NCBI GenBank assembly: GCA_965246715.1
Contig: CBDFFH010000005.1
Coordinates: 224,001-288,000 of the forward strand
Direction of reading: 5' to 3'
Length of the DNA: 64,000 nucleotides
DNA from: Chamaesiphon sp.
Lineage (GTDB): Bacteria; Cyanobacteriota; Cyanobacteriia; Cyanobacteriales; Chamaesiphonaceae
Shown here: positions 856 to 46,225 of the stretch, piece after piece
Layout: each line of letters begins with the position of its first letter
Numbering within the stretch: position 1 is the stretch's first letter
Program-made: the position numbers and the translations under genes
Notes under the pieces: model-generated
Databases searched by the model: none
Told to the model about the DNA's origin: nothing
Seen by the model: only the letters and a program-made list of their open reading frames with translations

Positions 856-1803
856 TTAATGAATTTCTGCTAACCAACGTTCGGCTTCTAGTGCTGCCAT
901 ACAGCCCGTCCCAGCGGCGGTAATCGCTTGACGATAGATGTGGTCTTGGACATCTCCAGCAGCCCAGACTCCGGCAATATTAGTGGCTGTGGATTTACCA
1001 ATGGTTTTGATATAACCTTTGTCATCTAAATCTAAGCTGTCTTGAAAAAGTTGGGTGTTCGGTGTATGTCCGATCGCATAAAATAACCCACCTACTTTTA
1101 ATTCCGTAATTGTGCCAGAAGCTTGGCTCTGAATTTTCACACTCTGGAGCACATCATCACCATTAGCTTCGATCGGTAATGCTTGCCAATGCACTCGAAT
1201 TTTGTCGTGGTTTAAAACTCGTTTCTGCATAATTTTAGAAGCACGCAAGCGATCGCTTCTGACTAATAAATGAACTTTACTCGCATATTTTGTGAGATAT
1301 AGAGCTTCTTCTGCTGCCGAATCACCCCCACCAACTACGGCAATTTCCACATCTTTAAATAACGGATTTGTGCCATCACAAATTGCACAGGCAGAAATCC
1401 CATTATTCCAGAATTTATCTTCGCCAGGGATATATAATCGCCGTGCAGCTGCCCCAGTACAAATAATTACCGCCTGAGTTTTTACTTCGAGATCGTCAGT
1501 AGCGATCGAAAAAGGTCTTTGGCTAAAATCCACATTCACCACATCATCGGCGATCGATTTAGCACCCCACCGAATCGCCTGTTGGCGCATTTCTTTCATC
1601 AATTGTGGCCCTTGAATTCCCTCCGCAAATCCAGGGAAATTCTCGACTTCGGTAGTTGTCATCAATTGACCTCCGGGCAATCCTCCCGCTGCAAACCCTT
1701 CAAACATAATGGGTCGTAGTTGAGCGCGTCCGGCATAGATTGCTGCTGTATAACCTGCTGGTCCCGAACCAATTATCACTAGTTGTTCGATCGTGTTTTT
1801 CAT
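856..1803 (-). CDS. trxB: NADPH-dependent thioredoxin reductase (NTRC-type NTR module)
   Basis: [43 protein letters not shown] and QAITAAG motifs. Confidence 0.95.
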
Positions 1804-1806
1804 ATA

Positions 1807-2682
1807 TTAATTAGTCGGCAAAAACCACTGTACGCCAGTAAACACATAATAAATCCCTGCCAAAATCAAAGCCACACTCCCAAATTTGGTAATGCTTTCT
1901 GAATATTTCAATAGTAAGTTTGCTTGCTTGGCAAAACCAGTGAGTAAACTAGCTAAAAAGATAATGATGGTATAACCAAAGGCGTAACTTGCCATTGTTA
2001 ATACAGCAAGTAATTGCGAACCACTAGCACCTGCGGCGGCTAGCACTGCAAATAGAACCGGACTCGCACAGGGCGAACTAACTAAAGCAAAAGTCAAACC
2101 CACACCAAAGGGACCAAAATTAGCACCATCGAGATTAATTTCTGGCAAAGGAATCTTAATCCAGCCCATTAAACCAAAACCCATAATCAGAATAATCGCG
2201 CCGACAATGACATTAATATGTCCGCGATATTCCACCATTACCGTGCCAGCAAAAGAAGATGCTAAACCAAAGAGACTGAGGATAATAACATTTCCTAAAA
2301 CAAATAATCCAGCTTTAAGGAAAGCATCACCACGAGACTTAATATTACGGGTGCCGATATAGCTTAAATTAAGTGGTAATATTGCTAAAATGCAGGGAGA
2401 AACACTAGCAATTAAGCCCCCAATCAAAGCTAGTGGCATGAGTACGAGTGGATTGGCAGTATCTTGTTTAGAAAACCATTCTTGGTAGCGGTTTTCAACG
2501 AATGAAATCAGGTGTTCGAGTCCTTGAGAGATAGGGCCAGTAATCAGTAAAGCTAGTACTAATCCTAATAATCCTAGTCCGCCAAATATCAGCCATTTCC
2601 TAGGTAGCTTTTGAATGATTTTTTTAATTCCAACTGGTTGTGAATTGACATTAATGATGTCATGCTCTTGGTTTGGTTTCAT
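1807..2682 (-). CDS. ccdA: CcdA/DsbD-type transmembrane electron transporter
   Basis: SPCIL and SSPCASP cysteine motifs, multiple TM helices. Confidence 0.85.
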   Translation of the reverse strand: MKPNQEHDIINVNSQPVGIKKIIQKLPRKWLIFGGLGLLGLVLALLITGPISQGLEHLISFVENRYQEWFSKQDTANPLVLMPLALIGGLIASVSPCILAILPLNLSYIGTRNIKSRGDAFLKAGLFVLGNVIILSLFGLASSFAGTVMVEYRGHINVIVGAIILIMGFGLMGWIKIPLPEINLDGANFGPFGVGLTFALVSSPCASPVLFAVLAAAGASGSQLLAVLTMASYAFGYTIIIFLASLLTGFAKQANLLLKYSESITKFGSVALILAGIYYVFTGVQWFLPTN

Positions 2683-2712
2683 AATATTCTCCTGGAATTG
2701 CTAGAATATGTT

Positions 2713-2882
2713 TTACTTAGCGATCGCTACATCTAAAACCTTGGTATAAGCATCTATGGCGGGATTGTTACGATGCTGTGCTAAGATATTTCCCGTTGCT
2801 GGATCGACAATAGTTAGGGAACCAGTTTGAGTTTTATTTGTGGCTAAAAATTCGCTGAGTCCTAGTTCTTTAGCTTTCGCTA
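2713..2882 (-). pseudogene. 5'-deleted second copy of the exported thioredoxin gene
   Basis: AKAKELGLSEFLATNKTQTGSLTIVDPATGNILAQHRNNP matches the C-terminus of 2969..3469; the WCPAC region is absent. Confidence 0.8.
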
Positions 2883-2968
2883 TAAAAGGTAGCGTTAACA
2901 AATGAATCGATCGGATGTATTTCTGGACTCGATCGAGCAGCCAAGTCCAGAAACATCCAGACAACCTG

Positions 2969-3469
2969 CTACTTGCTGGCTAGGGCTGTATCCAATACAC
3001 TTGTATAATCAGCTTTGTTAGGGTTATTACGATGTTGTGCCAAGATTTTGCCCGTAGCTGGATCGACAACAGTTAGCGATCCTGTTTGAGTTTTATTAGC
3101 AGCAAAAAACTTACTGAGTCCAAGTTTTTTAGCTGTTGCTTCAGCTTTGGCAGCACTGGATTTATCAGACACATCTAAGACGACAAAATTAACTTTACCT
3201 GCATATTGTTGTTTCAGTTGGGAGACAGTAGGCGCAATATTTTTACAAGCAGGACACCAACTAGCGTAAATATCCACAACTACTGGTTTGCCTTGCAATT
3301 GTTGAGCGAGTGGCCCACCCACAGAACTTGCAGAACTACTATTTTTAGCAGCACAAGGATTAACTTTCGAGGCACAAGGATTGGCGACAGAGCTAGATGA
3401 ATTGACTGCTACAGCTCCCAAGCTAAGTAGAGAGATAATCGCAAAAGTGGCTAGAGACTTAATTTTCAT
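2969..3469 (-). CDS. Exported thioredoxin-like protein
   Basis: Signal peptide, NPCA repeats, WCPAC active site; likely start MKIKS. Confidence 0.85.
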   Translation of the reverse strand: MKIKSLATFAIISLLSLGAVAVNSSSSVANPCASKVNPCAAKNSSSASSVGGPLAQQLQGKPVVVDIYASWCPACKNIAPTVSQLKQQYAGKVNFVVLDVSDKSSAAKAEATAKKLGLSKFFAANKTQTGSLTVVDPATGKILAQHRNNPNKADYTSVLDTALASK

Positions 3470-3615
3470 GATTTTTCCTAGATAGAAGAAAGTAAACCGA
3501 ATCAAACAACCGAAAGATCCTGAGTCCGAACATGGATATGCCGCGATCGAACTTTACAGGATGGTTGTTTAGTTTGAAGTGACTGCCTGAAATATTAGGC
3601 TTGCCGATGAACTTA

Positions 3616-3670
3616 ATTAAAAGGGATGAAGATGAGTCGGAGATGAAGATGAGATGGAGATTGAATAAAA
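3616..3670 (-). promoter_or_regulatory. 11-bp-period hexamer boxes plus -10 for the trx-ccdA-trxB operon
   Basis: Reverse strand ttttat-N5-ctccat-N5-cttcat-N5-actcat-N10-tttaat. Confidence 0.6.
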
Positions 3671-3871: not shown

Positions 3872-4498
3872 ATGTCAAATTGCGATTGGTTAGTTACAAA
3901 TGAGAGTCAATGCGTGCCTTTAGAAGGTAAAGCACAATCGATCGCGACCAAAACATATTGGGCGGAAAAACCTTATCGGCTCCATCGCTTTCTCACTGAT
4001 GTTGAGGATATTATTTGGCACGAAAGTGACGATCGAGTGCGGCTCCAAAAAATCTGTCCGTTAGTCCGCAGATTACTTAATAGCTCGGAATGGATCTTAA
4101 CCAATTTTTCGCACCCCGATCCTGAAACTGGGTGGTCGGTTCAGCTTCATTATGACGAACCGGATTTCCCAATTACCGTTCAGACAGTGGTGTGGTCGCC
4201 CCAGAGTGTTTCTCCCATCCACAATCATGCTAGCTGGGGAATTGTGGCGATGTTAGACGGACAGGAGCAGAATACCTTTTATCAACGATCGCCGACATCA
4301 GAATTACCCGATTTCATCGATCGAACCGGATCGCACCTGCTAACTCCAGGTGATATTCTCTGCTTGATGCCAGAGGCAATTCACCAAATTAAAGCGAACG
4401 GTGATGAACCGACGATTAGCTTTAATGTCTATGGCGTGACTGACTACGATCGACGCTTTGAATTTAATTTAGAACAGCATACTGCGGCTATTTTCTAA
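3872..4498 (+). CDS. Cysteine-dioxygenase-like cupin
   Basis: SPIHNHASWG and downstream AIHQ give a three-His cupin site; TAATG overlap with the kinase gene. Confidence 0.8.
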   Translation: MSNCDWLVTNESQCVPLEGKAQSIATKTYWAEKPYRLHRFLTDVEDIIWHESDDRVRLQKICPLVRRLLNSSEWILTNFSHPDPETGWSVQLHYDEPDFPITVQTVVWSPQSVSPIHNHASWGIVAMLDGQEQNTFYQRSPTSELPDFIDRTGSHLLTPGDILCLMPEAIHQIKANGDEPTISFNVYGVTDYDRRFEFNLEQHTAAIF

Positions 4499-5937
4499 TG
4501 CACCATTCATTCATCAAAGCGATCGGTAATGTATTTGGCAAACGAATTTCACCAACTTCGCTTCAGTTTCGCTTGAGTGTCGAATCGATCGCCATCGCGA
4601 TCGTTAGTTTGAGTTGTGTCTCCCTTTGGGCTGGTTGGAGAATGGAGCAAACATTGATTACCACCAATAAACAGCTCCTGGAATATATCGCGACTCGCTT
4701 TCCCGAACAAGTGGAAATGTATATGGAGACTGGCGGATTGGCAGCGGGGATCGAACGCACAACCAAAAAGGTGACGACATCAGGATTAGCGATTTTAGTC
4801 CAGAGTCCCGATGGGCGGCTGCTGGGTAAGTCCGCAAACAATGATTCAGCTCCCGATAACGCCCAGATTATTAAATCGATCGTGGTACCGACAACTCCCC
4901 AAATAATTCAGTTTCGCGGACGTTCGATCGTCCTGTGCGGTAACGATCTGATGATTAATAGTAAATTAGTCGGTAAAGTCTATCTTTCCAAAGACGTTAC
5001 CACCGAACAGAATGACCTCAATCAGAGTATCTATGGTTTGGCGATCGTCAGTATTTTGGCAACCGCGATCGCGATCCTCGCGATCGTTCACCGCGTTCGC
5101 AAAACTCTAGATCCCCTTGCCCAAATTAGCCATATTGCCAGTGTGGTATCGATCGAAGATCTGAAATCATCTTCACTCCAACTCGATCGCGCACCCGATG
5201 AAATTCAAGGATTAGTCAGAGCTTTTAATCAGATGCTGCTGCGATTATCCGCGACTTGGGAACAGCAACGTCAATTTGTGGGCAATGTATCGCACGAATT
5301 ACGCACACCATTAACCACGATCGGCGGCTATCTCCAAAGTTTACTGCTCAGGGGCGATAATCTGAGTACTTATCAACAACAAGCGATCGCCACCGCTAGT
5401 GCTGAAACCACGCGTACCATTCAAATGCTCCAAGACTTGCTAGACTTAGCCAGAGCTGATAGTGGCAATTTGCACTTTCGTCAAAGTCCGGTATTTCTGA
5501 ATACATTGCTAGTCGAAGTAGCTGCTATGAGCGAAAATGTCAGCGGTCGATCGGTGAAACTACTACCAACCGATTATGATGTTGTCGCTTTAGCCGACCA
5601 AGATCGACTCCAGCAGGTATTAATCAATTTAGTGGATAATGCGATTAAGTACTCAGCAGATGCTGTCGAGATTAAACTCGAAACTAGAGACAATCTGGCG
5701 ATCGTCCAGGTGTGCGATCGGGGGATTGGGATTCCATTAGAGCATCAAAGTCGGATTTTTGAGCGGTTTTATCGGGCTGATGGAGCTGAAACTCGCTCTA
5801 GGGATGGTACTGGTTTAGGACTAGCGATCGCCAAAAGCTTAATTGAAGGCATGAATGGTAAGATTACGCTGCAATCGCAACCAAACGCAGGTTGTACTTT
5901 TACGATCGCTTTACCGATCTGGAAATCTCAATCATGA
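4498..5937 (+). CDS. Membrane sensor histidine kinase (HAMP-HisKA-HATPase)
   Basis: Two TM helices, SHELRTPL, NLVDNAIKY, DRGIGI, GTGLGL. Confidence 0.95.
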   Translation: MHHSFIKAIGNVFGKRISPTSLQFRLSVESIAIAIVSLSCVSLWAGWRMEQTLITTNKQLLEYIATRFPEQVEMYMETGGLAAGIERTTKKVTTSGLAILVQSPDGRLLGKSANNDSAPDNAQIIKSIVVPTTPQIIQFRGRSIVLCGNDLMINSKLVGKVYLSKDVTTEQNDLNQSIYGLAIVSILATAIAILAIVHRVRKTLDPLAQISHIASVVSIEDLKSSSLQLDRAPDEIQGLVRAFNQMLLRLSATWEQQRQFVGNVSHELRTPLTTIGGYLQSLLLRGDNLSTYQQQAIATASAETTRTIQMLQDLLDLARADSGNLHFRQSPVFLNTLLVEVAAMSENVSGRSVKLLPTDYDVVALADQDRLQQVLINLVDNAIKYSADAVEIKLETRDNLAIVQVCDRGIGIPLEHQSRIFERFYRADGAETRSRDGTGLGLAIAKSLIEGMNGKITLQSQPNAGCTFTIALPIWKSQS

Positions 5938-6614
5938 AGGAACATATTCTGTTAGTTGAAGATGACCCCAAATTGGCAGAGTTTATTGCAGCAGAACTCA
6001 GTTTGGAAGGTTATCGAGTGACAATTGCTACTAGTGGTATGGAGGGATTGACGATCGCTCGCGATACGCCACCAGATTCGATCGTTTTAGATTGGATGCT
6101 GCCGGAAATGTCGGGATTAGATGTTTGTCTGCGGTTGCGAAAAACAGGCTGTAAGATCCCAATTATCATGCTGACTGCTAAAGATGAAGTACCCGATCGA
6201 GTTACTGCCTTGAATGCTGGAGCCGATGACTATCTCACCAAACCTTTTAGCATTGCCGAACTGATTGCCAGGATTAATGCCAGACTCCGGCGGATGTATC
6301 CAGTACTTGATGACAATTTGCAATTTGAAGATCTGAGCTTAAATCGGCTCTCGCGAGAAGTCTATCGTGCCGAACAAAGGATCGAACTTACTGCCAAAGA
6401 GTTCGACTTACTCGAATTTATGTTGCGGCATTTGCAGCAAGTCTTGACTCGCGAACAAATCCTGGAAGCCGTCTGGGGTTATGACTTTGTGGGCGAATCA
6501 AATATCATCGAAGTCTACATTCGCGCGCTGCGGATCAAATTAGAAGTAAGTAATTCTAAGCGACTCTTGCATACAGTGCGCGGCGTTGGTTACGTCTTAC
6601 GCGATCGGGGTTGA
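5934..6614 (+). CDS. OmpR-family response regulator
   Basis: LLVEDD, LDWMLP, GADDYLTKPF, LHTVRGVGY; ATG overlaps the kinase stop. Confidence 0.95.
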   Translation: MKEHILLVEDDPKLAEFIAAELSLEGYRVTIATSGMEGLTIARDTPPDSIVLDWMLPEMSGLDVCLRLRKTGCKIPIIMLTAKDEVPDRVTALNAGADDYLTKPFSIAELIARINARLRRMYPVLDDNLQFEDLSLNRLSREVYRAEQRIELTAKEFDLLEFMLRHLQQVLTREQILEAVWGYDFVGESNIIEVYIRALRIKLEVSNSKRLLHTVRGVGYVLRDRG

Positions 6615-8476: not shown

Positions 8477-8970
8477 ATCGCGATCCCTGTTCGTGTGTCT
8501 TCTACCAACCTACATTTTCAGCAGCAAATCGCGATCGGCGATTTTCAACTTCTCGTCGATGAACCGCTCGAACTAGGTGGCGATGATACAGGAGCAGATC
8601 CGTTTAGCTATGTGCTAGCTGGATTGGGAGCCTGCAAAGCAATTACCTTACAGCACTTCCGGCTATCATGAGGTACATTTTTATCCTTAACCTCCTCAGT
8701 GACTAACTTTTAGCGATTAGATTGTACCCCATAGCTGCCGGAAGTGCTGTAAAGATGTATGCCGAGCGCAAAGGCTGGTTGCTACGAGATGTTGTTGTCG
8801 ATCTGGTACATGAGAAATCACCAGAGGGACAGTCTCGAATTATCGTGCAACTCCAACTAGAGGGAGAATTGACAACCGAGCAACGACAAAGACTCGCAGA
8901 AATTGCGGATAAATGTCCCGTTCATAAGCTGCTTATTGCTGAAGTTGATATTCAAACCAGACTGTACTAA
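8477..8970 (+). pseudogene. OsmC-family protein interrupted by a MITE
   Basis: DEPLELGGDDTGADP...LGACKAITL, insert, then KMYAERKGW...ADKCPVH. Confidence 0.9.
8651..8749. mobile_element. IS630-type MITE (99 bp, TA duplication)
   Basis: TA-cagcacttccggc...gccggaagtgctg-TA; removal restores ACC TTA AAG ATG in frame. Confidence 0.9.
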
Positions 8971-15890: not shown

Positions 15891-15914
15891 TTCGCGGAGC
15901 GTCGCTTCTGGCGA
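15891..15914 (+). repeat. SDR5-like 24-bp insertion in HIP1 (in frame, USP domain)
   Basis: gcg[ttcgcggagcgtcgcttctggcga]atcgc. Confidence 0.8.
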
Positions 15915-20992: not shown

Positions 20993-20995
20993 CGG

Positions 20996-31840: not shown

Positions 31841-32106
31841 TGTAAGAGTACCTCTTCGATATTTTTCAGTGTATTTGAACAATTGATTTAAGCCGATCGT
31901 GCCAATTCAGCGTCATCTCTTTTCATTTACCAACGTCGAGCAAGTGCCATGACGATCGCCGTTGAGGGCACGCAACGATTCTCCAGTAGTATGCTAAATC
32001 TGTCGATAATGCCCTCATATCCATTACTAGCAGCCATTTGCAGGTGAAGAACAGAGCGAGAACACTACCTCGATCCATGCCTAGAGATCGGCATCAACTG
32101 CTAGCG

Positions 32107-32616: not shown

Positions 32617-32644
32617 GATGAAATCTCCTGTTGGTGTTTGAGTG

Positions 32645-34777: not shown

Positions 34778-35066
34778 AGATTTTTCTCTCACTAAGGTTG
34801 CTGTCAATCTTACTTAAAGATTGCTATAAGCTATATATACCAGTCATTTTCAGACCCAGAATGCAGGTCTGTACAACAACTGGGCTAAATGCTATTTACA
34901 AGGTCAAAGAGCTATTGAGCATATCCTGTTTGCGTTCTAGCTTTCATGTTGCCCCCTGTGCAGTGGATTGTGACGATCGATCTGGCGTTCGCAGCCTGCA
35001 TGATGCCTCGGCGATCGCTAAATCATCCGCACTGCCTAAAATACATTACAAGCACTTGCACCAAAC

Positions 35067-35110
35067 AGTATGACAGTCAAATCTGAGATAATCCTGAGAA
35101 ACAGATAAGA
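35067..35110 (-). promoter_or_regulatory. 11-bp-period hexamer boxes plus -10
   Basis: tcttat-N5-tctcag-N5-tctcag-N10-catact. Confidence 0.65.
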
Positions 35111-35280
35111 TTTGGCGATCGATCGGACGATGTTTGTAGATCGAAGCTCGACAGCACCGGAGTGAGGAAGCAGCATTCGATTACCAAAAACTTTTACTCG
35201 ATCGGGCTGTAAAGTAGTCAGATGAAAGTGGGCCGCAAGTCATCATGTCTGTGCTCGGTTAATCTAATTGAGTCAAAGTG

Positions 35281-36162: not shown

Positions 36163-36206
36163 AGCGTGACCGCCAAAACTGAGAAAATCCTGAGAGCCAG
36201 ATGAAA
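36163..36206 (-). promoter_or_regulatory. 11-bp-period hexamer boxes plus -10
   Basis: tttcat-N5-tctcag-N5-tctcag-N10-cacgct. Confidence 0.65.
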
Positions 36207-36389
36207 TTTTGCGATCGATCGAGTGGCGATCGGACAAATTCACGAGCTTGCTGGCGATAATTTTGCGACACTCGATTGTTGTAAATTTACGATCGATCTT
36301 GAAATAATCTGTAGACTAAACTCATCACGATCGATCGACTGACAGCAGCTATTGAGGATAATTTCAGTGTATGGAAGAGTGCAGATTTC

Positions 36390-37232
36390 TCAGGACTTTG
36401 ATAGTTGTACCCGAACATTGCGAGCAGTCGAGCCATACCGACCTATGACTAATTCAAATTCAACCTGTACTCCTGCTGGCAACGTGCGGTACCCCTCCCC
36501 AGGAATCGCCGTGAAGTTAAAGAACACATCCTCACCACCACCATCTGGCGAGATCGTCCCACTCCCTGCTTTAAGATCGAACGATCGCACGACACCTTTT
36601 AGCACTGGCAATCTAGTCGCGCCCAAACTTGGCACACCTTCACTCCACGTTTGTTGCGGAATGCGAACTTGCTTTACCTCTGGCGTATCGTATGCCTCAT
36701 AGCGATAGTCAGTTCGCGTCGCCATCAGCGTCCGTAAATCTTGGCGTAATTCCTCGATCGACGGTCGCCCTACGAAAAACCACCCATTGTAGATTTTGTG
36801 AATGCTCAAGTCGGGATGCAACACGAAGGTATACGGTTGTGCGCGGTAAGCATACTCACCTTCGGTTTCATCTAAAATATTAATCTGCTTGATGACTTCG
36901 CGCCGTTCGTCGCATAAAAAGGGCCACTGTGCGCCCAACCCCGCGCGAAAGGCAGCTTGAACTAACGGCGGATCGACCCCAATCGTTGCCAGCTTGCCAT
37001 AATTGACAGTTAATTCGCTTTGGAACAGGACTAACTGTGGTAGTTGCTGCCGATCGCGTGGGCAAAAGAAGCCACGATAGAATACGAGAATCAACGGATA
37101 GCCATCAGTAAATCCCAGATACCGATCCATCAAGCTTGGTTGTGTCAATGTCGAGAGTTTTATCGGTTCATTGTCCTGATTTGGGAGTTCGAGATCGGGA
37201 AAGCGATCGCCTACATTCAGATTAGTTGTCAT
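36390..37232 (-). CDS. AhpC/TSA-like redoxin fused to a C-terminal cold-shock domain
   Basis: VGDRFPDLEL and FYRGFFCPRD; GVVRSFDLKAGSGTI..DVFFNFTAI..VEFE..ARNV. Confidence 0.8.
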   Translation of the reverse strand: MTTNLNVGDRFPDLELPNQDNEPIKLSTLTQPSLMDRYLGFTDGYPLILVFYRGFFCPRDRQQLPQLVLFQSELTVNYGKLATIGVDPPLVQAAFRAGLGAQWPFLCDERREVIKQINILDETEGEYAYRAQPYTFVLHPDLSIHKIYNGWFFVGRPSIEELRQDLRTLMATRTDYRYEAYDTPEVKQVRIPQQTWSEGVPSLGATRLPVLKGVVRSFDLKAGSGTISPDGGGEDVFFNFTAIPGEGYRTLPAGVQVEFELVIGRYGSTARNVRVQLSKS

Positions 37233-37326
37233 AATTACTGCTTACATATTCGAGTAGGTTGGTGAGAAGTAGCTCACTTTAGAACAGCGGCGATCGAAAG
37301 TAAGCAGATCCCGATTGACGTGTCTT

Positions 37327-38673
37327 TCAAAATAACTGCCGTGCGAGCGTGGGTAATGATTCCGCAAAGGTGGGATGAATGTGCACCGAGCGTTCGAGGA
37401 CTTGCCAAGTGGCTCCAGCTTCCATCAGTGCCAGAAAGACATGTACTAATTCGGAAGTTTCATAGCCCACTAACGTTGCACCTAAAATCAGATTTGTCTG
37501 CGTGTCAACGACCATGCGGAAAAAGCCTAAATCTTGTCCCCACTCAATCCCTCGTGCGGTTTGGGCTACTTGCGTAGTGACTGCGCGAGCATTGATGCCT
37601 TGTTGCTGCGCCTGTTCGATCGTCATCCCGACACGACCGACTTGTGGCTCGGTGAAAACGGCATAGCCCAGCACCCGATCGTGACGATTCCGGTCGCCGC
37701 CTGCCAAAATCGCTTGCAAGCGGCGATAGTCTTCCCAAGAAACATGAGTAAAAGCAGGCTGTTTGGCGACATCTCCGATCGCATATACTCCCGCGCAGCT
37801 AGTCCCAAATCGATCGTCGATTTTCACATAGCCGCGATCGTCTAATTCAATCCCAGTCGCCGCACAATTCAATGCTGGAGTATTGGGCTTGCGTCCGGTG
37901 GCAATTAGCAGGGCTTCACCGTCGAGCGTCTTGCCATCATCAAGCGTGAGGGTAAATACGCCATTGGTATGTGCAACTCGATCGACTTTCGTGTTGAAAT
38001 GCAGTCCGATGCCATTGCGATCGAATGCCTCCGCCATCACGCTGCTGACATCAGCTTCTTCCTGAGCCAATAATCGATCGCCCCGCACGATTAATTCTGT
38101 CTTGCTGCCCAACTGTGCCATACCCTGACCTAATTCCATCGCGATATAGCCACCCCCAATGACGATTAGACGCGGCGGAAGCTGTTTTAGATCGAAGAAA
38201 TTACGGTTGGTCAGATAAGGCGTTCCCGCTAACCCAGGCAGATCGGGGATGCTGGAAGATGTGCCTGTGTTGATAACGACAATCGGTGCTTGCACAGTTA
38301 CCCCGCCGCCAGTTACCATCCGCTCTCCGACGAACGCGGCTTCAGTACAAACGACTTTCACCCCCGCACCTTCTAACCGCTTTTGTACACCCTGATTGAA
38401 CTGACTGCGAATGTCCTGTACCCGCTCCATCACTGCCGTAAAATCCATCTCTACCTGGGTGTGGATGCCAAGCTTATCGGCTTGGTGTGCGCGACCTGCG
38501 GCATGAGCGGCGGCGAGAAATGCTTTAGAAGGCGTGCAGCCATAGTTAACGCAACTGCCGCCTAAAGCATCGCGCTCGAATAAAACGACTTTTTGCCCAG
38601 CTTTAGCACAGTCAACTGCGAAGGGAACGCCGCCTTGACCGCTACCGATGACGATTACATCTACTGTTTCCAT
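37327..38673 (-). CDS. Class I pyridine nucleotide-disulfide oxidoreductase (MerA/RclA-like)
   Basis: GGSCVNYGCTPSK, GGGYI, IHPTFAE; no C-terminal MerA Cys pair. Confidence 0.85.
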   Translation of the reverse strand: METVDVIVIGSGQGGVPFAVDCAKAGQKVVLFERDALGGSCVNYGCTPSKAFLAAAHAAGRAHQADKLGIHTQVEMDFTAVMERVQDIRSQFNQGVQKRLEGAGVKVVCTEAAFVGERMVTGGGVTVQAPIVVINTGTSSSIPDLPGLAGTPYLTNRNFFDLKQLPPRLIVIGGGYIAMELGQGMAQLGSKTELIVRGDRLLAQEEADVSSVMAEAFDRNGIGLHFNTKVDRVAHTNGVFTLTLDDGKTLDGEALLIATGRKPNTPALNCAATGIELDDRGYVKIDDRFGTSCAGVYAIGDVAKQPAFTHVSWEDYRRLQAILAGGDRNRHDRVLGYAVFTEPQVGRVGMTIEQAQQQGINARAVTTQVAQTARGIEWGQDLGFFRMVVDTQTNLILGATLVGYETSELVHVFLALMEAGATWQVLERSVHIHPTFAESLPTLARQLF

Positions 38674-38865
38674 AAATACCTGTTACCTGTGGTGAGGAGG
38701 ATGAGCTAGCTATTCTCTAGACTAACAAATGCTTTTTATGACCTTGGCAGCCTATTTCAGTCTGGATCTTTGCTGGAGAGAGTTCCAGCGAACTTCGATG
38801 TTAGCTCGTTAAAAACACAATTAAGACTTTTCAAATATCCGTTGAGAAGCTCAGAAATACCAAAT

Positions 38866-40149
38866 TCACACATCGATCGCGAGTGCAGTCTTCGGTCGAG
38901 CAATACAGATGAGCACCGAGCCTGGTTCGATCTCCGCAGTCGGCGGTTGGAGATATTCCACTTCGCCCTCAGTCAACTCACACATGCAAGTACCGCAAAT
39001 TCCTTGCCGACAACTGTAGGGCGGGTTGAGACCATTTGCTTCTGCCAATTCCAGAATACTGCCATCATCAGGCTGCCAGGTGACTGTTTGACCAGAACTG
39101 GCAAACGTAATTTCGGCAGGTTCGGCGGTTTGATCGCTCGATCCTGTTTCAGCAGCCCCAGCTTTACTTGAGGTAAACACTTCAAAGAAAATTCGGTGTT
39201 CGGCTACTCCCGCTTGTTTGAGTCCATCCCGCAACGATTGTAAAAATGGTGGTGAGCCACACAGGTAATACTCTGCTTCTTGCTTAACCAAGCGTTGCAA
39301 CAGAGCCGTATCGACATATCCGGTACTTTGATAGCGACCTCGATCCTCCGCTGTGGGGCGACTGTAGGCATAGTGAACCGTCAGATGGGGATTTTGCTCG
39401 TCGAGTTCCATCACCTCATGTCGAAATGCTTGATGATTGCCATCTCGCGCACCATGCACGAACCAAATGGTTCGATCGAGCTGGAGTTGAGTCGCCGCTT
39501 TTGCCATACTCATCATCGGCGTAATGCCCACGCCATTACTGACTAGCACTGCTGGCAAGGATTGCTGCACGTCCAAAATAAATTTACCGCTCGGTGGTTT
39601 AGCTGCAATGACCGTTCCTTCGATCGCGAGATCGTGCATGAAGTTAGATGCTAATCCTGCTGGTACATCCTGTCCTTCCGGCATCCGTTCCCGCTTAATC
39701 GACAAGCGATAACGGTCGCAAGGCTCGACATAATCTGACAAAGTATAGGTACGAATTACGGGTTTTGCCTGTCCGGGAATATCTAACTTGATGGTGAGAT
39801 ATTGACCAGGCTTGAAGTTTGGAATCTCCTTTTTATCTTCAGGCTGTAAATAAAAGGACGTAATCTCTTCGCTCTCCTTAACTTTGCTGGTCACGACAAA
39901 ATTGCGCCAATCTTTCCAACCACTCCGATCGTCAATGGTGCGATCCTGCTGGCTATTCGGTTTCGATTTCAGACCGAACACCGCGCCACCAGCCGCTCCC
40001 ACTAGTACAGCATACACAGCCGCACGATAAGCATCGGGGGCTTTATCTTTGGTCGATCCGAGTGCCAAGCCAAATGCTAATGTCAGCACCGATCCGACTG
40101 TTGCAGCTCCGGCTAGACTTCTAATTAATGGGTTATTATTTTTAAGCAT
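38866..40149 (-). CDS. Membrane-anchored FAD/NAD(P)H reductase with C-terminal 2Fe-2S domain
   Basis: Two N-terminal TM helices, RTYTLS, GVGITP, CGS, CRQGICGTC...C. Confidence 0.85.
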   Translation of the reverse strand: MLKNNNPLIRSLAGAATVGSVLTLAFGLALGSTKDKAPDAYRAAVYAVLVGAAGGAVFGLKSKPNSQQDRTIDDRSGWKDWRNFVVTSKVKESEEITSFYLQPEDKKEIPNFKPGQYLTIKLDIPGQAKPVIRTYTLSDYVEPCDRYRLSIKRERMPEGQDVPAGLASNFMHDLAIEGTVIAAKPPSGKFILDVQQSLPAVLVSNGVGITPMMSMAKAATQLQLDRTIWFVHGARDGNHQAFRHEVMELDEQNPHLTVHYAYSRPTAEDRGRYQSTGYVDTALLQRLVKQEAEYYLCGSPPFLQSLRDGLKQAGVAEHRIFFEVFTSSKAGAAETGSSDQTAEPAEITFASSGQTVTWQPDDGSILELAEANGLNPPYSCRQGICGTCMCELTEGEVEYLQPPTAEIEPGSVLICIARPKTALAIDV

Positions 40150-40210
40150 CGTCGCCTCCTAGAGCGCATAATGTAGTTTACGTATTGTGCGGAGCGGATC
40201 GAACATTACA

Positions 40211-42334
40211 TCAGTCTTCGTAAACATTCAACTTACCGTCGAGATGGGTGACTTCCCAGTAAGTGAGATCGTCCACTCGCCAGAACCGCAAATTAACTTT
40301 GGCAGCACCGACAACCAAGTGATTTAGGGTCAAATCGGGGAGCCACTCAGGTAAATTGGGCTGCACTCGCAACCGTTGATGCGGGGCATCTGCTTCGAGT
40401 CCGAGAATACTACGAATGAGGAAGAAAATCGACCCCGCCGCCCAAGCTTGGGGAATGTTGGCATCGGGATACGGTACGGGGAAGCTTTCAGGGGTGCGAT
40501 CGATCCCGGCAAATAGTTCGGGCATTCGTCCTGACTCAAAGTAACTCGCGGCGGCAAAGGTCGCTTCCGCAATCCGATTGGCTTCCTGGTGATAGCCGTA
40601 CCGCTTCAGTCCAGCAGCAATAATTGAATTATCATGCGGCCACACACTACCGAGTTGGTAACTAATCGGGTTGTAGGCTGGATTCTGAGCGGAGAGCGTG
40701 CGGATACCCCAGCCGCACCATAAGTCGGGCTGGAATAGCCGCTTTACCAGCCGCTGTGCTCGATCTGGTGGCACGATCCCCGACCAGAGTAAGTGCCCAG
40801 GATTGGATGTAATCGATCGAATCTGCTGTTTGTGGCTATCTAAACCCAAACAGTACAACCCCTCTTTTTCCATCCAAAAGCGATCGTTAAACCGTTGATA
40901 GAGATCTTTGGCTTTGCGATCTAGCTGCTTGGCGCGATCGTGTTCGCCCCAAATTTCATAGATTTGGGCAGCACATTTCCAGGCATCATAGACATAGCCC
41001 TGGACTTCGCACAGCGCGATCGGTGGATCGACTTGACTGCCATCGGCAGCCACGATTGAGTCGCCGGAATCCTTCCAGCCCTGATTTCGCAAGCCGTCTT
41101 TAGATCGGGTGATATACTCCACAAATCCATCGCCATCAAAATCGCCATCCCGCTCGATCCAGGCTAACGCCCGTTCGAGCGGCACGCGACAGGTATCTAG
41201 CAGCTTAAGATCGGCATTCCAACAGTAGGCTTCTGCCAGCGTAATAATCCAGAGAATCGTCGCTTCGATCGTCCCATAGTAGGGCGTATGCGGCACCTCG
41301 TGCAGTTGAGCGAGTTCGCCTTGACGGATCTCATGCAGGATTTTTCCAGGTTGAGCATCCCGCCAGTCATCCCGCTCGATCGCTTGTAACTGAGCTAACT
41401 TAACTAGGGTACCGTGACTAAATTCACAATTTACCGCCATCGTTTGGAGACTGGCAATAATCGAGTCCCGCCCAAATACTGCCACAAACCACGGAATTCC
41501 AGCGGCTGGCATCCAGCAAGTTTGGCCGTTGTCCTCCACTTCGATCCGCAGCGATCCCATATCCAGCAATGCTTGTTGGTAAGTTGCCATCACTTCCGCA
41601 TTCGAGGATTGTAATTGGGTTGCCGTATTGAGAAAATTGACCATCTCGCGTCCGGCTTTGGTTTCGGTCAGCGCAGTATCTTTGGTATGTCTGGGTTCGA
41701 GGACTTCGCCATCTACCAGCGCGGTAAAATTGATGCAGCTATGCCAGGTGTGACCTGGATCGAGAGCAATGTCAAAGAACAGCCGACCATTAGCATAACG
41801 CGGCAACATTTTGGGATCGGGTGCGACAATGATGCCTCTGTGAAACGTGCCGTGCTGGTAAGTGGTTGTGAGTGCGCCATTTTGCCAGACAGTTTCAATC
41901 TGACCGCGCGTAAGCAATCGCTTCCCCCTGACTTGAAAGATGTCTGCAAAGTCCGATCGAGTTGCCAGCATTAACTGAAATTCCACCCGATCGCCGTGAT
42001 GATTCGTGATGTCAATATCCTCGTGCATCCCACCGAGAATATCGCGGCGCACGGTGATGATTAGACTACCTTGGGGTAACGTTCCACTAATAGCCAGCAG
42101 TTCGGGATTAGTGAAGGTGTAGACCGCCACCCGATGGCTGACACTGCTCGATGCCAGCAGTTGGAGGGGTGAACGATCGATCGAGATTTCGTAGTAGGAA
42201 ATCAAGCGGGTATCGCGGACAAAGAAGCCTTGAGCGCGATCGTCATTAATCGAGCCATCGCGAGCGGTAACGAGAAAGGAAGACCCATCGCTAATGGCAA
42301 TCTGTTCGGCATTAACGGCAACTTTTGCAGGCAT
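40211..42334 (-). CDS. Amylo-alpha-1,6-glucosidase (paralog of 32645..34777)
   Basis: Same conserved motifs as the paralog. Confidence 0.9.
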   Translation of the reverse strand: MPAKVAVNAEQIAISDGSSFLVTARDGSINDDRAQGFFVRDTRLISYYEISIDRSPLQLLASSSVSHRVAVYTFTNPELLAISGTLPQGSLIITVRRDILGGMHEDIDITNHHGDRVEFQLMLATRSDFADIFQVRGKRLLTRGQIETVWQNGALTTTYQHGTFHRGIIVAPDPKMLPRYANGRLFFDIALDPGHTWHSCINFTALVDGEVLEPRHTKDTALTETKAGREMVNFLNTATQLQSSNAEVMATYQQALLDMGSLRIEVEDNGQTCWMPAAGIPWFVAVFGRDSIIASLQTMAVNCEFSHGTLVKLAQLQAIERDDWRDAQPGKILHEIRQGELAQLHEVPHTPYYGTIEATILWIITLAEAYCWNADLKLLDTCRVPLERALAWIERDGDFDGDGFVEYITRSKDGLRNQGWKDSGDSIVAADGSQVDPPIALCEVQGYVYDAWKCAAQIYEIWGEHDRAKQLDRKAKDLYQRFNDRFWMEKEGLYCLGLDSHKQQIRSITSNPGHLLWSGIVPPDRAQRLVKRLFQPDLWCGWGIRTLSAQNPAYNPISYQLGSVWPHDNSIIAAGLKRYGYHQEANRIAEATFAAASYFESGRMPELFAGIDRTPESFPVPYPDANIPQAWAAGSIFFLIRSILGLEADAPHQRLRVQPNLPEWLPDLTLNHLVVGAAKVNLRFWRVDDLTYWEVTHLDGKLNVYED

Positions 42335-42447: not shown

Positions 42448-42491
42448 AAAATAACCATTAAACCTGAATCAGTCCTGAGTAGCACATAAAT
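42448..42491 (-). promoter_or_regulatory. 11-bp-period hexamer boxes plus -10
   Basis: atttat-N5-actcag-N5-attcag-N10-tatttt. Confidence 0.55.
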
Positions 42492-42584
42492 TATTGCTAC
42501 CAAATAAATGACAACATTAATTTTTGACGCGATCGCCGCATAAATTAATAGCAAGATCGATAGAATTGAAATGTAGACAGACGG

Positions 42585-42894: not shown

Positions 42895-43332
42895 TCAATT
42901 TCTTCCTCCAAATAGTTGGAGTTCGACGGCATTAAGATAAGCCCGATCTATTTGAGTTTCTGGCGATAAATCCTTTGCCTCGATTGCAGCTTGCACTAAA
43001 TCTTTTGCAGCAATTCGACCGCTGGAAAAATCGGTACGCAACGATCCAAAACTGGAAATTCCCTGTGCTTTATAGGCACCCTGATATGCTCGTGAAGCTA
43101 ATTCAAAGGGAGTGATTTCAGCAGCATTTGCATTCATAACTGTAGCGAAGGTTCGACCGCCTCGACCTACTGCTTTTGAAGTAGGATCTGAGGAACTAAT
43201 TGCTGTATCGGTAGCATTGGAGTTCATCGCCATGATGAAGGGATGGTCTCCTTGCCCTACTGCTTTTGCCGAGGTAGCTGCCGATAGAGATAGGGTGAGA
43301 ACAGAGAGACTAAGAAGAATAAAGCGTTTCAT
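42895..43332 (-). CDS. Hypothetical secreted protein (same family as 53174 and 53678)
   Basis: Signal peptide; ITPFELASRAYQG.Y..QGI...AKDLVQAAI...YLNAV. Confidence 0.75.
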   Translation of the reverse strand: MKRFILLSLSVLTLSLSAATSAKAVGQGDHPFIMAMNSNATDTAISSSDPTSKAVGRGGRTFATVMNANAAEITPFELASRAYQGAYKAQGISSFGSLRTDFSSGRIAAKDLVQAAIEAKDLSPETQIDRAYLNAVELQLFGGRN

Positions 43333-43379
43333 AATTAATAACCTTTGGTGTGAGGAGATTCGATAGATTTCATACTTTT

Positions 43380-43434
43380 ATAATGTCAGATGATTATGAA
43401 ATTAAGCTGAGTATAGGTAGAATTTGATATTAAA
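43380..43434 (-). promoter_or_regulatory. 11-bp-period hexamer boxes plus -10
   Basis: tttaat-N5-attcta-N5-actcag-N5-tttcat-N10-cattat. Confidence 0.5.
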
Positions 43435-43552: not shown

Positions 43553-44266
43553 TTAAATGCCACCAAACCATTCATAGCCTTGGTCTTCCCAATAGCCACT
43601 TCGTCCCGTGGGTATCTGACTGCTAAACGTCACCTGTGTTACCCATTTAGATTGTTTATAGCCCAATTTAATCGGTGCGGCGAGGCGGATTGGTGCGCCA
43701 TTATCGATCGGTAGTGGTGCCCCATTCTTACTACTTGCAAGTAGAGTCTGAGGGTGTAGAGCCGAAGCTAAATCCCAACTTTCATAATATTTATCCGCCG
43801 ACTGAAAGATGACATATCGCACACTCGGCTTGGGTTTGACCAGCATCGCTAAATCCCGCAATCTGACTCCACCCCATTGCACGATCGCCGCCCAACCTTC
43901 CACGCAGACGTGTTGAATTACCATTGACGCTTGGGGAAGTTTATTCAATTGTGGGAGCGAAAGCCTAATTGGATTATCTACTTCACCATCAATTATCAAT
44001 CGATAGGCATCCAAATCCAGTTTTGGATTGCCTTCAGCACTATTGATAATCAAAGCTTTAGGATCGATCGCACTCACCGGATATTCAGGAATGAGTAATT
44101 GGGGTTTAACTAATAATTCCTCGAACGGTTGATTCAGCGGTTCGGTAAGATTACCGATCCGTTCGGCAAGTTTATCGTCACTACAACTGCTAAGTAAATA
44201 ACCGATACCAGACATTCCCAGTAGTTGCAGGGTTTGCCGACGATTGAGCCGAGCGGGAAGAATCAT
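43553..44266 (-). CDS. Sulfite-oxidase-family molybdopterin oxidoreductase (MsrP/YedY-like), Tat lipoprotein
   Basis: LNRRQTL, LSSC, HVCVEGW, NGAPIRL, LGYKQSKW, GYWED. Confidence 0.85.
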   Translation of the reverse strand: MILPARLNRRQTLQLLGMSGIGYLLSSCSDDKLAERIGNLTEPLNQPFEELLVKPQLLIPEYPVSAIDPKALIINSAEGNPKLDLDAYRLIIDGEVDNPIRLSLPQLNKLPQASMVIQHVCVEGWAAIVQWGGVRLRDLAMLVKPKPSVRYVIFQSADKYYESWDLASALHPQTLLASSKNGAPLPIDNGAPIRLAAPIKLGYKQSKWVTQVTFSSQIPTGRSGYWEDQGYEWFGGI

Positions 44267-44267
44267 A

Positions 44268-44301
44268 AAATTATAAATTATGAGTTATGAATTATGAATT
44301 A
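44268..44301. repeat. STRR-like heptamer tandem repeat
   Basis: aaattat aaattat gagttat gaattat gaatta. Confidence 0.6.
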
Positions 44302-44901
44302 CCAGGGACGAAACATCGATTGAGTTAACTTCAATCCACCAGCCTTAATCCCCATGATTAGATGAACCAAGATAAATATTAAAGAAATCGGTACGGTCAA
44401 AAAATGTACCGTGCGAAGAATTTGCCAATTGATAAATAAGCCAGAGAGCAAATGCAATTGAGCTGGTTTATACATCGCTAAACCTGACGTAATTGCCAGG
44501 AGCATGACAGGGATAATTCCTGTATAAACCAGTCGATGCCAAGCATAAGTCTTTCGTTTGGGATTTTGACCGACTTGCAATGCCTTGAGATCTTGATCGG
44601 AAAAGAACCGTTTTTTCCACCGTTGAGTGAGAAAAATATAAATTCCATAAATCAGCAAGGTAAAGGCAAACACCCACATCACAGCAAAGTGCCAATCTCT
44701 ACCACTAGCCAAATAACTACCTAAAGTCGCCCATTTCGGTATATGCCAACCGGCTCTCCCGCCAAACACCGGATTAGCATTATAAATCGTTAACCCGCTG
44801 CCCATCATCATCAACAAGCTGATAATTAACAAACCATGCAGAATTTTGATAAAAGTCTGCTGTTGGGGCAGTGGTGGAGATTTAGGTTTCTGCTTATTCA
44901 T
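44299..44901 (-). CDS. Cytochrome b subunit (hydrogenase/thiosulfate reductase b-type), partner of the Mo enzyme
   Basis: Four TM helices with His ligands (LHG, WHF, VHF, VHL). Confidence 0.8.
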   Translation of the reverse strand: MNKQKPKSPPLPQQQTFIKILHGLLIISLLMMMGSGLTIYNANPVFGGRAGWHIPKWATLGSYLASGRDWHFAVMWVFAFTLLIYGIYIFLTQRWKKRFFSDQDLKALQVGQNPKRKTYAWHRLVYTGIIPVMLLAITSGLAMYKPAQLHLLSGLFINWQILRTVHFLTVPISLIFILVHLIMGIKAGGLKLTQSMFRPW

Positions 44902-44932
44902 TTTATTGTCATTCGATTAAATGCTAAAAAAC

Positions 44933-45625
44933 TTAGATGGGTAACTTGGGAAATAGTGGTAACAACCACAATTGGATCTCAACATCCCAACCTAATAAAA
45001 TCGCGATCGCGGTGCCTGTCATCAAAATCCCACCAATTCGTTGCAACTTAGCAGTATGCGGAATTATCCATCGCCAAGATTGACTGAGATACCGACTAGT
45101 ATAAGCCAAAATCAGTAAGGGAATTCCCGCTCCTAGCCCGTAGAAAGTTAATAAGATTAAAGCAGCTAAAATGTCATGTTTGACGGCTGCTAAAACTAAA
45201 ATACTCCCTAATGCGGGGCCAGCGCAGGGAGTCCAGAGCAAGCCTAATTGCGTCCCGATCGCAAATTCGCCCCACAAGTTCGGTTGCTCTGGCTCTCGAA
45301 AATTACCAAATTGCCAACGGCTAAATACCCAATAACTCAACTTGGGGAAAATTGATAACAGACCAAAGAAAATTAGTGCAGCGATCGCGACACCACGTAA
45401 TATATTTGCAAATCCAGCGAACCATGAACTAGCAATTCCGAGTAGGCTACCGATCGCGGCAAACCCACAGATTAAGCCCGCAACTAATGCGATGGGGCCA
45501 AATCGATGAGTTTTAAAAGACCGTCCTAAAACTAACGGTAAGATCGGCAGCACACAGGGAAAAATAATTGTTAATAATCCTCCCAAGATAGCCAGACTTA
45601 AAGAGCCGAATGATACTCCATTCAT
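44933..45625 (-). CDS. CcdA-family protein (DipZ membrane half)
   Basis: PCVLPILP and WTPCAGP. Confidence 0.85.
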   Translation of the reverse strand: MNGVSFGSLSLAILGGLLTIIFPCVLPILPLVLGRSFKTHRFGPIALVAGLICGFAAIGSLLGIASSWFAGFANILRGVAIAALIFFGLLSIFPKLSYWVFSRWQFGNFREPEQPNLWGEFAIGTQLGLLWTPCAGPALGSILVLAAVKHDILAALILLTFYGLGAGIPLLILAYTSRYLSQSWRWIIPHTAKLQRIGGILMTGTAIAILLGWDVEIQLWLLPLFPKLPI

Positions 45626-45631
45626 GCTGTG

Positions 45632-46225
45632 TCACCCTAATAACTGACGAATTTTAGTTTCGGTTTCAGCGTAAGCACCTTCGCCAATATGGTCGTACAC
45701 GATTTGACCCTGGCGATTGGCTAAAAATAAGTGCGGCCAATATTCATTATTGTAAGCCTTCCAAGTTTCAAAGCCGTTATCTACCGCGACGGGATACTTA
45801 ATATGGCGTTTACTTACTGCTTGTTTGATATTACCTAGCACGCGCTCGTAGGGAAATTCGGGCGTGTGTACGCTGACGATCTTTAAACCTTTGTCAGCAT
45901 ATCGATCGTGCCAACCGACTAAATGCGGGATAGTCGCCTGACAGTTGCTACAGGCAAATGTCCAGAATTGGAGCAAGACAACATTCCCACGTAAACTCGC
46001 CAGTGTAAGCGGTTCGGTATTGATCCAATTGCTAATTCCTTGGAGTTCTGGCAGGGTTTTACCAGCAGATTCGAGCGCTATTTCATTACTGGGTGCTGCG
46101 GATGTGGGAGCGAAGGTTTTGGCGTTAGATGGTGCTGGTTGCAATTTCTGTCCGATGGTAGTGGCGATGCCAGCACCAACGATGCCTAATCCTAAGTATT
46201 TGAGAATGTCGCGTCTGTGGCTCAT
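45632..46225 (-). CDS. Tat-exported thioredoxin-like protein (DipZ redoxin half)
   Basis: RRDILK leader, FWTFACSNC, VHTPEF, YWP. Confidence 0.85.
   Translation of the reverse strand: MSHRRDILKYLGLGIVGAGIATTIGQKLQPAPSNAKTFAPTSAAPSNEIALESAGKTLPELQGISNWINTEPLTLASLRGNVVLLQFWTFACSNCQATIPHLVGWHDRYADKGLKIVSVHTPEFPYERVLGNIKQAVSKRHIKYPVAVDNGFETWKAYNNEYWPHLFLANRQGQIVYDHIGEGAYAETETKIRQLLG

Follow-up and report, generated by a model that had tools for sequence, protein, structure and literature searches.

The stretch of DNA analysed here (the window) comprises 64 kb of the present 6.1-Mb cyanobacterial genome, G000:C5:224001-288000 (contig CBDFFH010000005.1); C5, C13, C20 and so on denote contigs of G000, and coordinates without a contig prefix are positions in the window. 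It carries genes for methionine (Met) repair, namely exported MsrA and MsrB, secreted Met-rich peptides and genes for TlpA, CcdA, cytochrome b and a molybdenum (Mo) enzyme, together with sugar operons and, in its left part, a thioredoxin block beside a cupin gene and a two-component pair. The first-pass annotation had proposed that positions 856-46225 form one complete defence system against reactive chlorine or another oxidant. The genes on which it relied were recovered by gene calls and by Pfam and NCBIfam models, including a DUF417 gene (32107), a flavin disulfide reductase without the C-terminal Cys pair (37327), the Mo enzyme with its cytochrome b, two pairs of CcdA and exported thioredoxin (1807-3505 and 44933-46225), MsrA/MsrB and the Met-rich peptides. 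However, the stretch holds two regulons, split at about 20 kb, and not one, because a repeat named box A stands at 12 of 18 curated unit heads to the right of this point and at none of 10 to its left, and the left block has a sister regulator pair and a sister box. It is very probable that one regulon unites the operons for Met repair and sugar breakdown.

Box A is a CTCAG-type repeat with an 11-bp period, located at the heads of transcription units. A de novo expectation-maximization motif search of the window's 34 intergenic gaps, with the HIP1 repeat masked, gave TGAGAAWTTGCTGAGAAT with a log-likelihood of 86, compared with 46-50 for four shuffles. A first search with HIP1 unmasked had recovered the HIP1 repeat alone, and a 17-bp single-site matrix was less sharp than the tandem model. 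To avoid circularity, the tied model of three 11-bp units was trained on promoters of the Sll1158 family (the family of gene 46483) from 32 other genomes, with the same-genus genome excluded; a score of 12.4 corresponded to the 99th percentile and 15 was taken as a stricter level. Box A was detected in 8 of 31 automatically defined window promoters versus 34 of 3248 background promoters in G000, and control periods of 9, 10, 12 and 13 bp as well as 12 column-shuffled matrices marked only 0-1 heads. Arrays scoring at least 15 numbered 37 genome-wide, with 10 in the window and 16 on C5 246-335 kb, compared with a mean of 0.38 per 64-kb tile (74 tiles). The clustering of repeat arrays in 20-64 kb exceeds chance.

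Within the window box A marks the two Met-rich peptides, the two debranching-type hydrolases (12.4 for one of them, a borderline score), the SDR gene 35281, three genes for small secreted proteins, the two Sll1158-family genes, and GH63-tal-zwf together with a divergent MarR gene; one array serves two of the 12 heads. Outside the window a third Met-rich peptide gene, ndh2-doxX, msrA-msrB, eamA-tlpA-ccdA-cytb-Mo and two more Sll1158 genes were marked. No box was assigned to trx/cupin, spondin, OsmC, ClC, GST, PNPOx, msrA 20762, tlpA 46225, 37327 or the chlorite dismutase gene cld. The box was also found in other genomes at non-training promoters, those of msrB (L013, L096), a Met-rich peptide (L021) and GH63 (L062/L063, L098), and further promoters elsewhere were those of ndh2 (L086, L095), glucose dehydrogenase (L097, L129), GMC (L132), VOC (L051), cld (L094) and the kinase HK2 itself (L106, L108, L109). 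Five same-genus genomes carried the same units with boxes in differing order, and a pattern search across the genus was positive in 23 of 27 genomes; the reversed control matched 0-2 times per genome.

The family of 46483, which includes Synechocystis Sll1158, is present in 34 of 301 genomes, and its loci often contain EamA (26 of 33) and DUF4079 (20 of 33). Its structure model (pLDDT 80) had no Foldseek match, and the best VIA Z was 5.7, to OsmE. Induction of sll1158-61 by H2O2 has reportedly been seen, but the literature search did not confirm it. The small secreted family (42895, 53174, 53678) had no Pfam or NCBIfam match, and its genes are preceded by box A in this genome and in others of the genus; in a protein atlas 42895 matched unnamed cyanobacterial clusters only. 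In many genomes (L011, L096, L137, L157-L160 and L163) box A also precedes a gene beside HK2 or DUF4079 for another secreted protein, about 150 residues long and by eye DM13-like.

The candidate regulator of box A lies outside the window. An OmpR-type pair of histidine kinase HK2 (C5:326845) and response regulator RR2 (C5:332693-333400) is located 39-45 kb to the right, followed by a DUF4079 gene and an Sll1158-family gene. A sensor-domain query matched in 63 of 301 genomes, and the 40 of these loci that were inspected fell into two clades. HK2/RR2 accompanies DUF4079, EamA and Sll1158-family genes and box A (clade support of RR2 100/100), whereas the pair inside the window, HK1/RR1, accompanies a cupin gene, the NPC-thioredoxin-ccdA-trxB-trxA block (with HK1 in 6 of 11 HK1 loci) and the sister repeat YTCAT-n6-YTCAT (box B). 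Two of the genome's three exact box B matches are inside the window, and the repeat was present at 11 of 15 inspected HK1-locus promoter stretches. HK1/RR1 likely reads box B, as judged from these loci, and was rejected as the reader of box A because its loci carry box B. RR2 is the probable reader of box A. The recognition helix reads YLR in RR2 versus ALR in RR1, a cupin locus with an RR2-type regulator (L169) carries box A, and HK2 is present in 19 of 21 genomes with the box at an Sll1158-type promoter versus 2 of 12 box-negative ones, counts that are not independent because most box-positive genomes belong to one family. A second RR2 copy, G000:C13:15103-15803, is split into two open reading frames.

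The sensor of HK2 suggests what may be detected. Periplasmic Met occupies four columns in 26, 24, 15 and 22 of 30 HK2 sensors and in 8, 3, 0 and 0 of 12 HK1 sensors; both types keep a His and a Cys. The best score of HK2 was obtained with heavy-metal sensor models (240, cut-off 293), and RR2 passed no named model tested (NblR 282/300, RppA 239/250, RpaB 215/330, HprR 191/353). Identity of HK2 with Synechocystis Hik10 was considered and no support was found, the two not having been compared directly. The genome behind L127 had no kinase match, and its best regulator match was 65%.

The Mo enzyme 43553 had been called MsrP-like. Its score with the MsrP model was 88.8 (cut-off 207) and its identity to MsrP 28%, while it is 38.6% identical over 96% to YedY of plasmid pEntH10407 of enterotoxigenic Escherichia coli H10407. 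The cytochrome b partner belongs to PF01292 and stands upstream of the short Mo enzyme, not in the msrP-then-MsrQ order. A housekeeping MsrPQ was thus ruled out by cut-off, alignment, and partner type and order. In the accessible part of Melnyk (2015; PMC4436054), the H10407 locus is named as a mobile yedZY-mrpX clade marked by the cytochrome-first order, and the pair in the window resembles this mobile type in gene order and sequence identity. The Met-rich peptide 22676 passed the TIGR02953 MXKDX model (43.5, cut-off 41), the family to which Brucella BcrX is assigned in the available text of PMC8315932; 22053 scored 23.4, below the cut-off, and the third peptide beside cld gave no TIGR02953 match. 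In the window the peptides are 21 kb from the Mo-enzyme unit, under the same box type, and at L021, L108, G020:C1 and G015 a Met-rich peptide lies within that unit.

Two repair units in the window carry no box of their own. We infer that msrB-msrA is reached by read-through from the Met-peptide box, and tlpA-ccdA-cytb-Mo from 46851. An own box was found before msrA or msrB at L013, L096, G011 and C5:314.8 kb, and at C5:324 kb, on C13 and in G011, G015 and G020 tlpA likewise lies behind a box-headed gene. A second tlpA-ccdA-cytb-Mo operon is present right of the window and a third copy, with msrA, on C13. A sigma-70 and terminator scan of 30.9-47.7 kb gave a signal no stronger than in shuffled sequence and did not delimit the operons.

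Exported Msr enzymes receive electrons from CcdA and TlpA, and NAD(P)H comes from glucose dehydrogenase and zwf. The best explanation of the whole, to which we give a probability of about 0.55, is that the Met-repair and sugar operons beyond 20 kb share box A, that RR2 likely binds it, and that HK2 would detect the oxidation of envelope Met by an oxidant such as hypochlorite or chlorite. Gene content, the repeat at unit heads, its recurrence in other cyanobacteria and the co-occurrence of HK2/RR2 are its directly observed basis. Oxidation of envelope Met sensed by HK2 would lead RR2 to bind box A, and Met-rich peptides would then be exported as sacrificial sinks. The methionine sulfoxide could be re-reduced by two routes, one from quinol through cytochrome b to the Mo enzyme, and the other passing thiol electrons by way of CcdA and TlpA to the exported MsrA and MsrB. 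GH63 and debranching-type hydrolases may free glucose from stored glucosides or glucans, their predicted substrates, and its oxidation by glucose dehydrogenase and by glk-zwf-tal would supply NADPH without light. As parts of the same explanation, the trx-ccdA-trxB block would be a separate sister regulon under HK1/RR1 and box B, cld a recurrent neighbour of the regulon and not a fixed member, and the DUF417 gene and 37327 late passengers within box-headed sugar units rather than RclC and RclA. The earlier idea that Met/Cys repair is paired with an NADPH supply finds genuine support in a common operator at Met-repair and sugar units, here and in other cyanobacteria. The left trx block is separate, and glucose 1-dehydrogenase (50530; NCBIfam 241, cut-off 215), tal (62586) and zwf (start 63828) lie outside 856-46225.

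Several observations weigh against this explanation. Read-through to msrA/msrB and tlpA-ccdA-cytb-Mo, which have no own box in the window, would have to span gaps of 230-560 nt, and only 2 of 33 Sll1158-family loci hold a Mo enzyme within about 10 kb. In G010 the box is strong (28.1) and the regulator search found an RR1-type only; in G258 HK2 is present and the Sll1158-type gene has no box. The periplasmic Cys is kept in 26 of 30 HK2 sensors, but the two HK2 copies of G000 lack it, and Met, His and Cys in a heavy-metal-type sensor suit copper equally well. cld has no own box in G000 (6.8, p 0.075) or G020 (-5.1), and only one of the five other cld genomes of the phylum sample has a box directly upstream of it. 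For GH63 loci collected by homology alone (the 29 best of 76 other matches), the box stood at 7 of 13 heads in HK2 genomes versus 0 of 6 others, a weak result (P 0.044 at 12.4; 2 of 13 versus 0 of 6 at 15) that became 7 of 18 versus 1 of 11 when operon-internal genes were included, where the non-HK2 internal locus scores high on a simple repeat.

Flanking sequence had been suggested as a place to look for chlorite dismutase or haloperoxidase genes, and cld was indeed found at C5:305405-305959 (L003:17405-17959, minus strand), 17.4 kb right of the window. Its product matched CCld of Cyanothece PCC 7425 (5k8z) with 300 bits over 180 residues (E 4e-89), the proximal His and distal Arg positions being kept, with Arg where the 7oua chain has Lys; by these features it is a clade-2 short cytoplasmic chlorite dismutase. 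Like that enzyme it keeps the His/Arg positions, but here it lies outside the window and is known from sequence. The gene lies between a TetR-GST-cupin unit and the third Met-rich peptide, followed by TlpA, folE and, further right, msrA-msrB; the paralogue of the TetR-GST-cupin unit on C55 lacks cld. cld is present in 6 of 301 phylum genomes, and an HK-family match was found in all five other carriers versus 57 of the 295 remaining genomes. Two of these five (one genus) hold cld inside a GH63/debranching cluster and three do not. It stands inside or beside box-headed units at G000, G009, G020, G067, G219, G320 and L013, in G009 directly behind the box-headed Sll1158 gene. A link of Cld with Msr systems is known in general, because Barnum and Coates (PMC9751292) report, in the available text, that the two are routinely found together. 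The role of Cld in cyanobacteria is stated as unknown in the accessible part of Schaffner et al. (PMC4973843). As to haloperoxidases, two large extracellular proteins of vanadium haloperoxidase/PAP2 type with intact-looking vanadate motifs are encoded in the genome, on other contigs (G000:C36:71567-75463 and C44:99464-103423) and unlinked to the island. They are possibly an own source of hypohalous acid, or else phosphatases. An own haloperoxidase as a general driver was rejected, as PF17897, a weak model, occurred in 10 other genomes, none of them a cld genome or a box-positive Sll1158 genome.

Chlorine specificity of the signal is a tentative proposal, somewhat less likely than not. The fuller version, a dedicated plasmid-mobile reactive-chlorine regulon in which the Met switch of HK2/RR2 would govern Met-rich peptides, two repair routes and dark NADPH, with repeated recruitment of cld, is possible but on the doubtful side. 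It competes with a reading, itself unlikely, in which the regulon is real and its signal is desiccation/rehydration, osmotic or general envelope stress, or copper, with Met repair as one recovery arm and cld as a hitch-hiker. Half of the targets, being sugar enzymes, a channel and secreted unknowns, have no known chlorine link; 30974 is a general-stress-type SDR (411.5, cut-off 413), the nearest models of HK2 are heavy-metal sensors, genomes with the HK family far outnumber those with cld, cld in G000 is without a box, and in the genome behind L127 the Sll1158 operon is under a LysR gene and has no box. A non-chlorine signal accords less well with the Met columns being specific to the HK2 clade and with cld in or beside the box-headed units of seven genomes or loci. 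It also sits poorly with the two studied systems of Azospira and Brucella, in which, according to the accessible parts of the reports, Met-rich peptides scavenge hypochlorous acid (HOCl), YedY-type enzymes re-reduce them, and the set of Met peptide, cytochrome b and Mo enzyme is HOCl-induced.

The single complete system across 856-46225, with RclA, RclC, MsrPQ, OsmC, GSTs and a ClC chloride outlet, is largely refuted and has become improbable. In its favour are the co-location of all the genes, cld 17 kb away, the grouping of 37327 with RclA and PRK06370 proteins, and two of 80 other loci in which DUF417 accompanies the reductase. The reductase (37327-38673) is a class-I flavin disulfide reductase with a CxxxxC pair, a C-terminal His-x4-Glu and a tail without a Cys pair, which are not diagnostic of RclA because they are common to most class-I reductases. 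It missed all cut-offs (RclA NF040477 269.5/740; NF041853 279.2/650; MerA 331/454; LpdA 345/409), also that of its best model, PRK06370 (404/629), and is 30% identical to E. coli RclA. In a tree of 23 rows it fell in its own long-branch cyanobacterial clade (100/100), outside the RclA clade (100/99; no topology test for one clade stands behind this exclusion), and both lay within an unresolved wider RclA and PRK06370 group that excludes MerA, LpdA and Gor (100/100). The identities RclA and MerA were thus ruled out by cut-offs, alignment and tree, and the placement that had been proposed for 37327 holds only at the level of the wider group; a position outside the RclA-like clade had been named beforehand as evidence against the first-pass proposal. 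The sister of the RclA clade is another flavin disulfide reductase, G000:C20:166396-167784 (96/91), a better RclA-like candidate. The 80 closest loci of 37327 (68-79% identical) mostly lack the window's other genes, with AhpC-CSD (cold-shock domain) in 9, DUF417 in 2, cld in 1 and the Mo enzyme in 1, and a shared box for the clade was rejected, since it was upstream in just 3 of 77 promoters, two from one species. The DUF417 domain of 32107-32616 was confirmed (PF04224, 111 bits), but an RclC identity failed on model cut-off and alignment (80.8/275, 31% identity to E. coli RclC, a 24-residue gap at the RclC central insert). The gene lies 28 nt behind the debranching-type hydrolase, and among 301 phylum genomes this one alone yielded it, none of the 300 others giving a match. 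A search of the window for AraC/RclR and RclB genes found none, box A is absent from the left 20 kb, where the regulator and box are different or lacking, and of the GST, OsmC and ClC genes, located as annotated, several are broken: OsmC has two frames with intervening stops (8495/8722), a frameshift disrupts GST 16746/17074, and ISAzo13 (16-bp inverted ends, TAA duplication) interrupts the ClC-CBS-USP gene within its USP part. As to the reductase itself, a frameshifted paralogue without a box (77-80% identical) is at G000:C20:138118-139474 (L007), several orthologues have a Cys-bearing tail about 10 residues longer that the window copy lacks, and the AhpC-like/cold-shock-domain fusion at 36390-37232 sits downstream of it.

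Independent piling-up of stress cassettes on an integrated plasmid, with the repeat a compositional accident or relic and no common control, would fit the insertion sequences and broken genes, the leftward integrase and topA, the differing order in each relative, the failure to find 37327 in 40 relatives at E 1e-100 and the rarity of 32107, but it is very improbable given an enrichment specific to period, matrix and heads, the genus-wide pattern matches and a box kept before orthologous targets across families. That the region is an integrated mobile element is itself likely, because same-genus relatives hold the same modules, boxes and HK2/RR2 on replicons of 447 kb and 154 kb; gene order of the modules varies in every one of the five same-genus genomes compared.

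Each part of the system has known relatives. Azospira SigF/NrsF-yedZY1-mrpX and Brucella BcrS/AbcS-bcrXQP likewise combine a secreted Met-rich peptide with a short Mo enzyme whose gene is preceded by that of cytochrome b, in many cases together with thioredoxin and msrA/msrB, and the Azospira locus is near cld, as here. Unlike them, the present system appears to be controlled by an OmpR-type pair through a tandem-repeat operator rather than by an extracytoplasmic function (ECF) sigma factor, for which no gene was found in the window, and its regulon also takes in CcdA/TlpA, glucoside hydrolases, genes of glucose oxidation and the pentose-phosphate pathway, and secreted proteins of cyanobacterial type. 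Synechocystis ManSR, CopSR and NrsSR are OmpR-type pairs that bind short direct repeats with spacing similar to box A. Kinase control as such has precedent, because three proteobacterial yedZY-mrpX loci adjoin a histidine kinase in the available text of Melnyk (PMC4436054). E. coli HprSR-MsrPQ also ties a membrane kinase with periplasmic methionines to Mo-dependent Met repair, HprS depending on Met72/Met153 according to the accessible part of bioRxiv 2021.09.09.459708; however, HK1 matches HprS in the kinase core only (26%), and the Mo enzyme and cytochrome are of another clade. With RclR-RclABC and the Har/RclA hypothiocyanous acid (HOSCN) reductases the window shares a class-I reductase with CxxxxC and no MerA tail and a DUF417 protein, but 4.7 kb separates these genes, which belong to different units, and no rclR or rclB was found. 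RclA is now described as a HOSCN reductase in the available text of PMC10151825, which further loosens the RclA analogy of the first-pass annotation.

A literature search, to which most subscription papers were closed, turned up no account of a chlorine response in cyanobacteria or of the regulator proposed here, and the combination of two-component pair, operator, Met repair and sugar arm was not described in the literature covered, including the accessible parts of PMC3264485 and bioRxiv 2026.08.10.743958. The cyanobacterial combination is thus not previously described in the literature searched. If the chlorine regulon is true, it would give a physiological setting for cyanobacterial Cld, point to natural chlorine stress in phototrophic biofilms, tie envelope repair to sugar catabolism, and assign the Sll1158-like, DUF4079, EamA transporter and small secreted families to one response. 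If the signal were desiccation or copper, the regulon would still be undescribed and less surprising. The question can be put to a direct test, given an operator, a candidate kinase-regulator pair with mutable Met residues and a list of targets.

Table 1 Features of the window, with coordinates in the 64-kb stretch
Feature	Position	Strand	Remarks
Exported NPC-repeat Trx (2969), relic (2713), CcdA (1807), NADPH Trx reductase (856), TrxA (501)	501..3505	-	Pfam/NCBIfam, motifs; separate module
Box B, trx/cupin divergent promoter	3632..3647	-	YTCATCT-n4-CTCAT
Cupin-HK1-RR1 two-component unit	3872..6614	+	sister clade of HK2/RR2
Box B, second copy, before spondin/RTX gene	6717-6732		exact match
Spondin-domain/RTX secreted protein	6906-8042		box B upstream
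Broken OsmC-like gene	8495..8970	+	no box
ClC-CBS-USP gene cut by ISAzo13 (13924-15238)	11997..15961	+	no box
Frameshifted GST, YfcG-like GST, FMN reductase, PNPOx-like	16746..19773	+	no box
Exported one-Cys MsrA and exported MsrB	20034..21490	-	no own box
Two secreted Met-rich GDAMK-repeat peptides	22053..22939	-
Box A array ahead of Met peptide 1	22375..22418		score 21.2
Box A array ahead of Met peptide 2	22982..23025		score 25.7
Sugar unit: debranching-type hydrolase, DUF417, SDR, GMC oxidoreductase, VOC, MIP channel, GH63, LLM oxidoreductase	23787..34807	-
Box A array at head of sugar unit	35072..35115		score 20.1
Box A array ahead of SDR 35281	36173..36211		score 18.5
Second hydrolase, FNR-ferredoxin fusion, flavin disulfide reductase 37327, AhpC-cold-shock fusion	36390..42334	-
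Borderline box A array heading second-hydrolase unit	42464..42496		score 12.4, 99th percentile
Small secreted protein	42895..43417	-	box A 43379-43417, score 17.5
Paralogues of 42895	53174, 53678		boxes 53076-53119 and 53594-53626
Exported TlpA-like Trx, CcdA, cytochrome b, Tat-type Mo enzyme (resembling mobile YedZY type)	43553..46225	-	no own box
Divergent secreted Sll1158-family pair	46483..48050		box A arrays 46988-47026 (20.2) and 47511-47604 (26.0)
FNR-ferredoxin, MIP, glucose 1-dehydrogenase, GMC; then secreted pair, debranching enzyme, dienelactone hydrolase	48309..57080	+
Box A array (59632-59692, score 20.1) heading GH63-tal-zwf, continuing into glk beyond the window	59632..64000	+

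As judged from sequence, the NPC(A)-repeat genes of the left part probably belong to another conserved regulon, which has a box of its own. Exported thioredoxins with NPC(A) repeats and free-standing NPCAAK-repeat peptides occur beside cupin-HK-RR units in the window (2969-3505) and at L152, L169, L174 and L175.

Left of the window there are housekeeping genes, topA and an integrase. The guanine-cytosine content of the window is 0.42-0.49 against a genome mean of 0.458, the sole outlier being 23.7-42.4 kb at 0.494. Gene relics stand at 21563 and 2713. Neither regulon is connected with the phosphotransferase-family and Uma2 genes and the transposase relic at 10140-11808 and 23075-23683. To the right, at G000:C5:290362-291560, a fructose-bisphosphate-aldolase-like gene is truncated against a partial egtD-like gene, and egtD recurs next to RR2, with a box, in G020 and G009.

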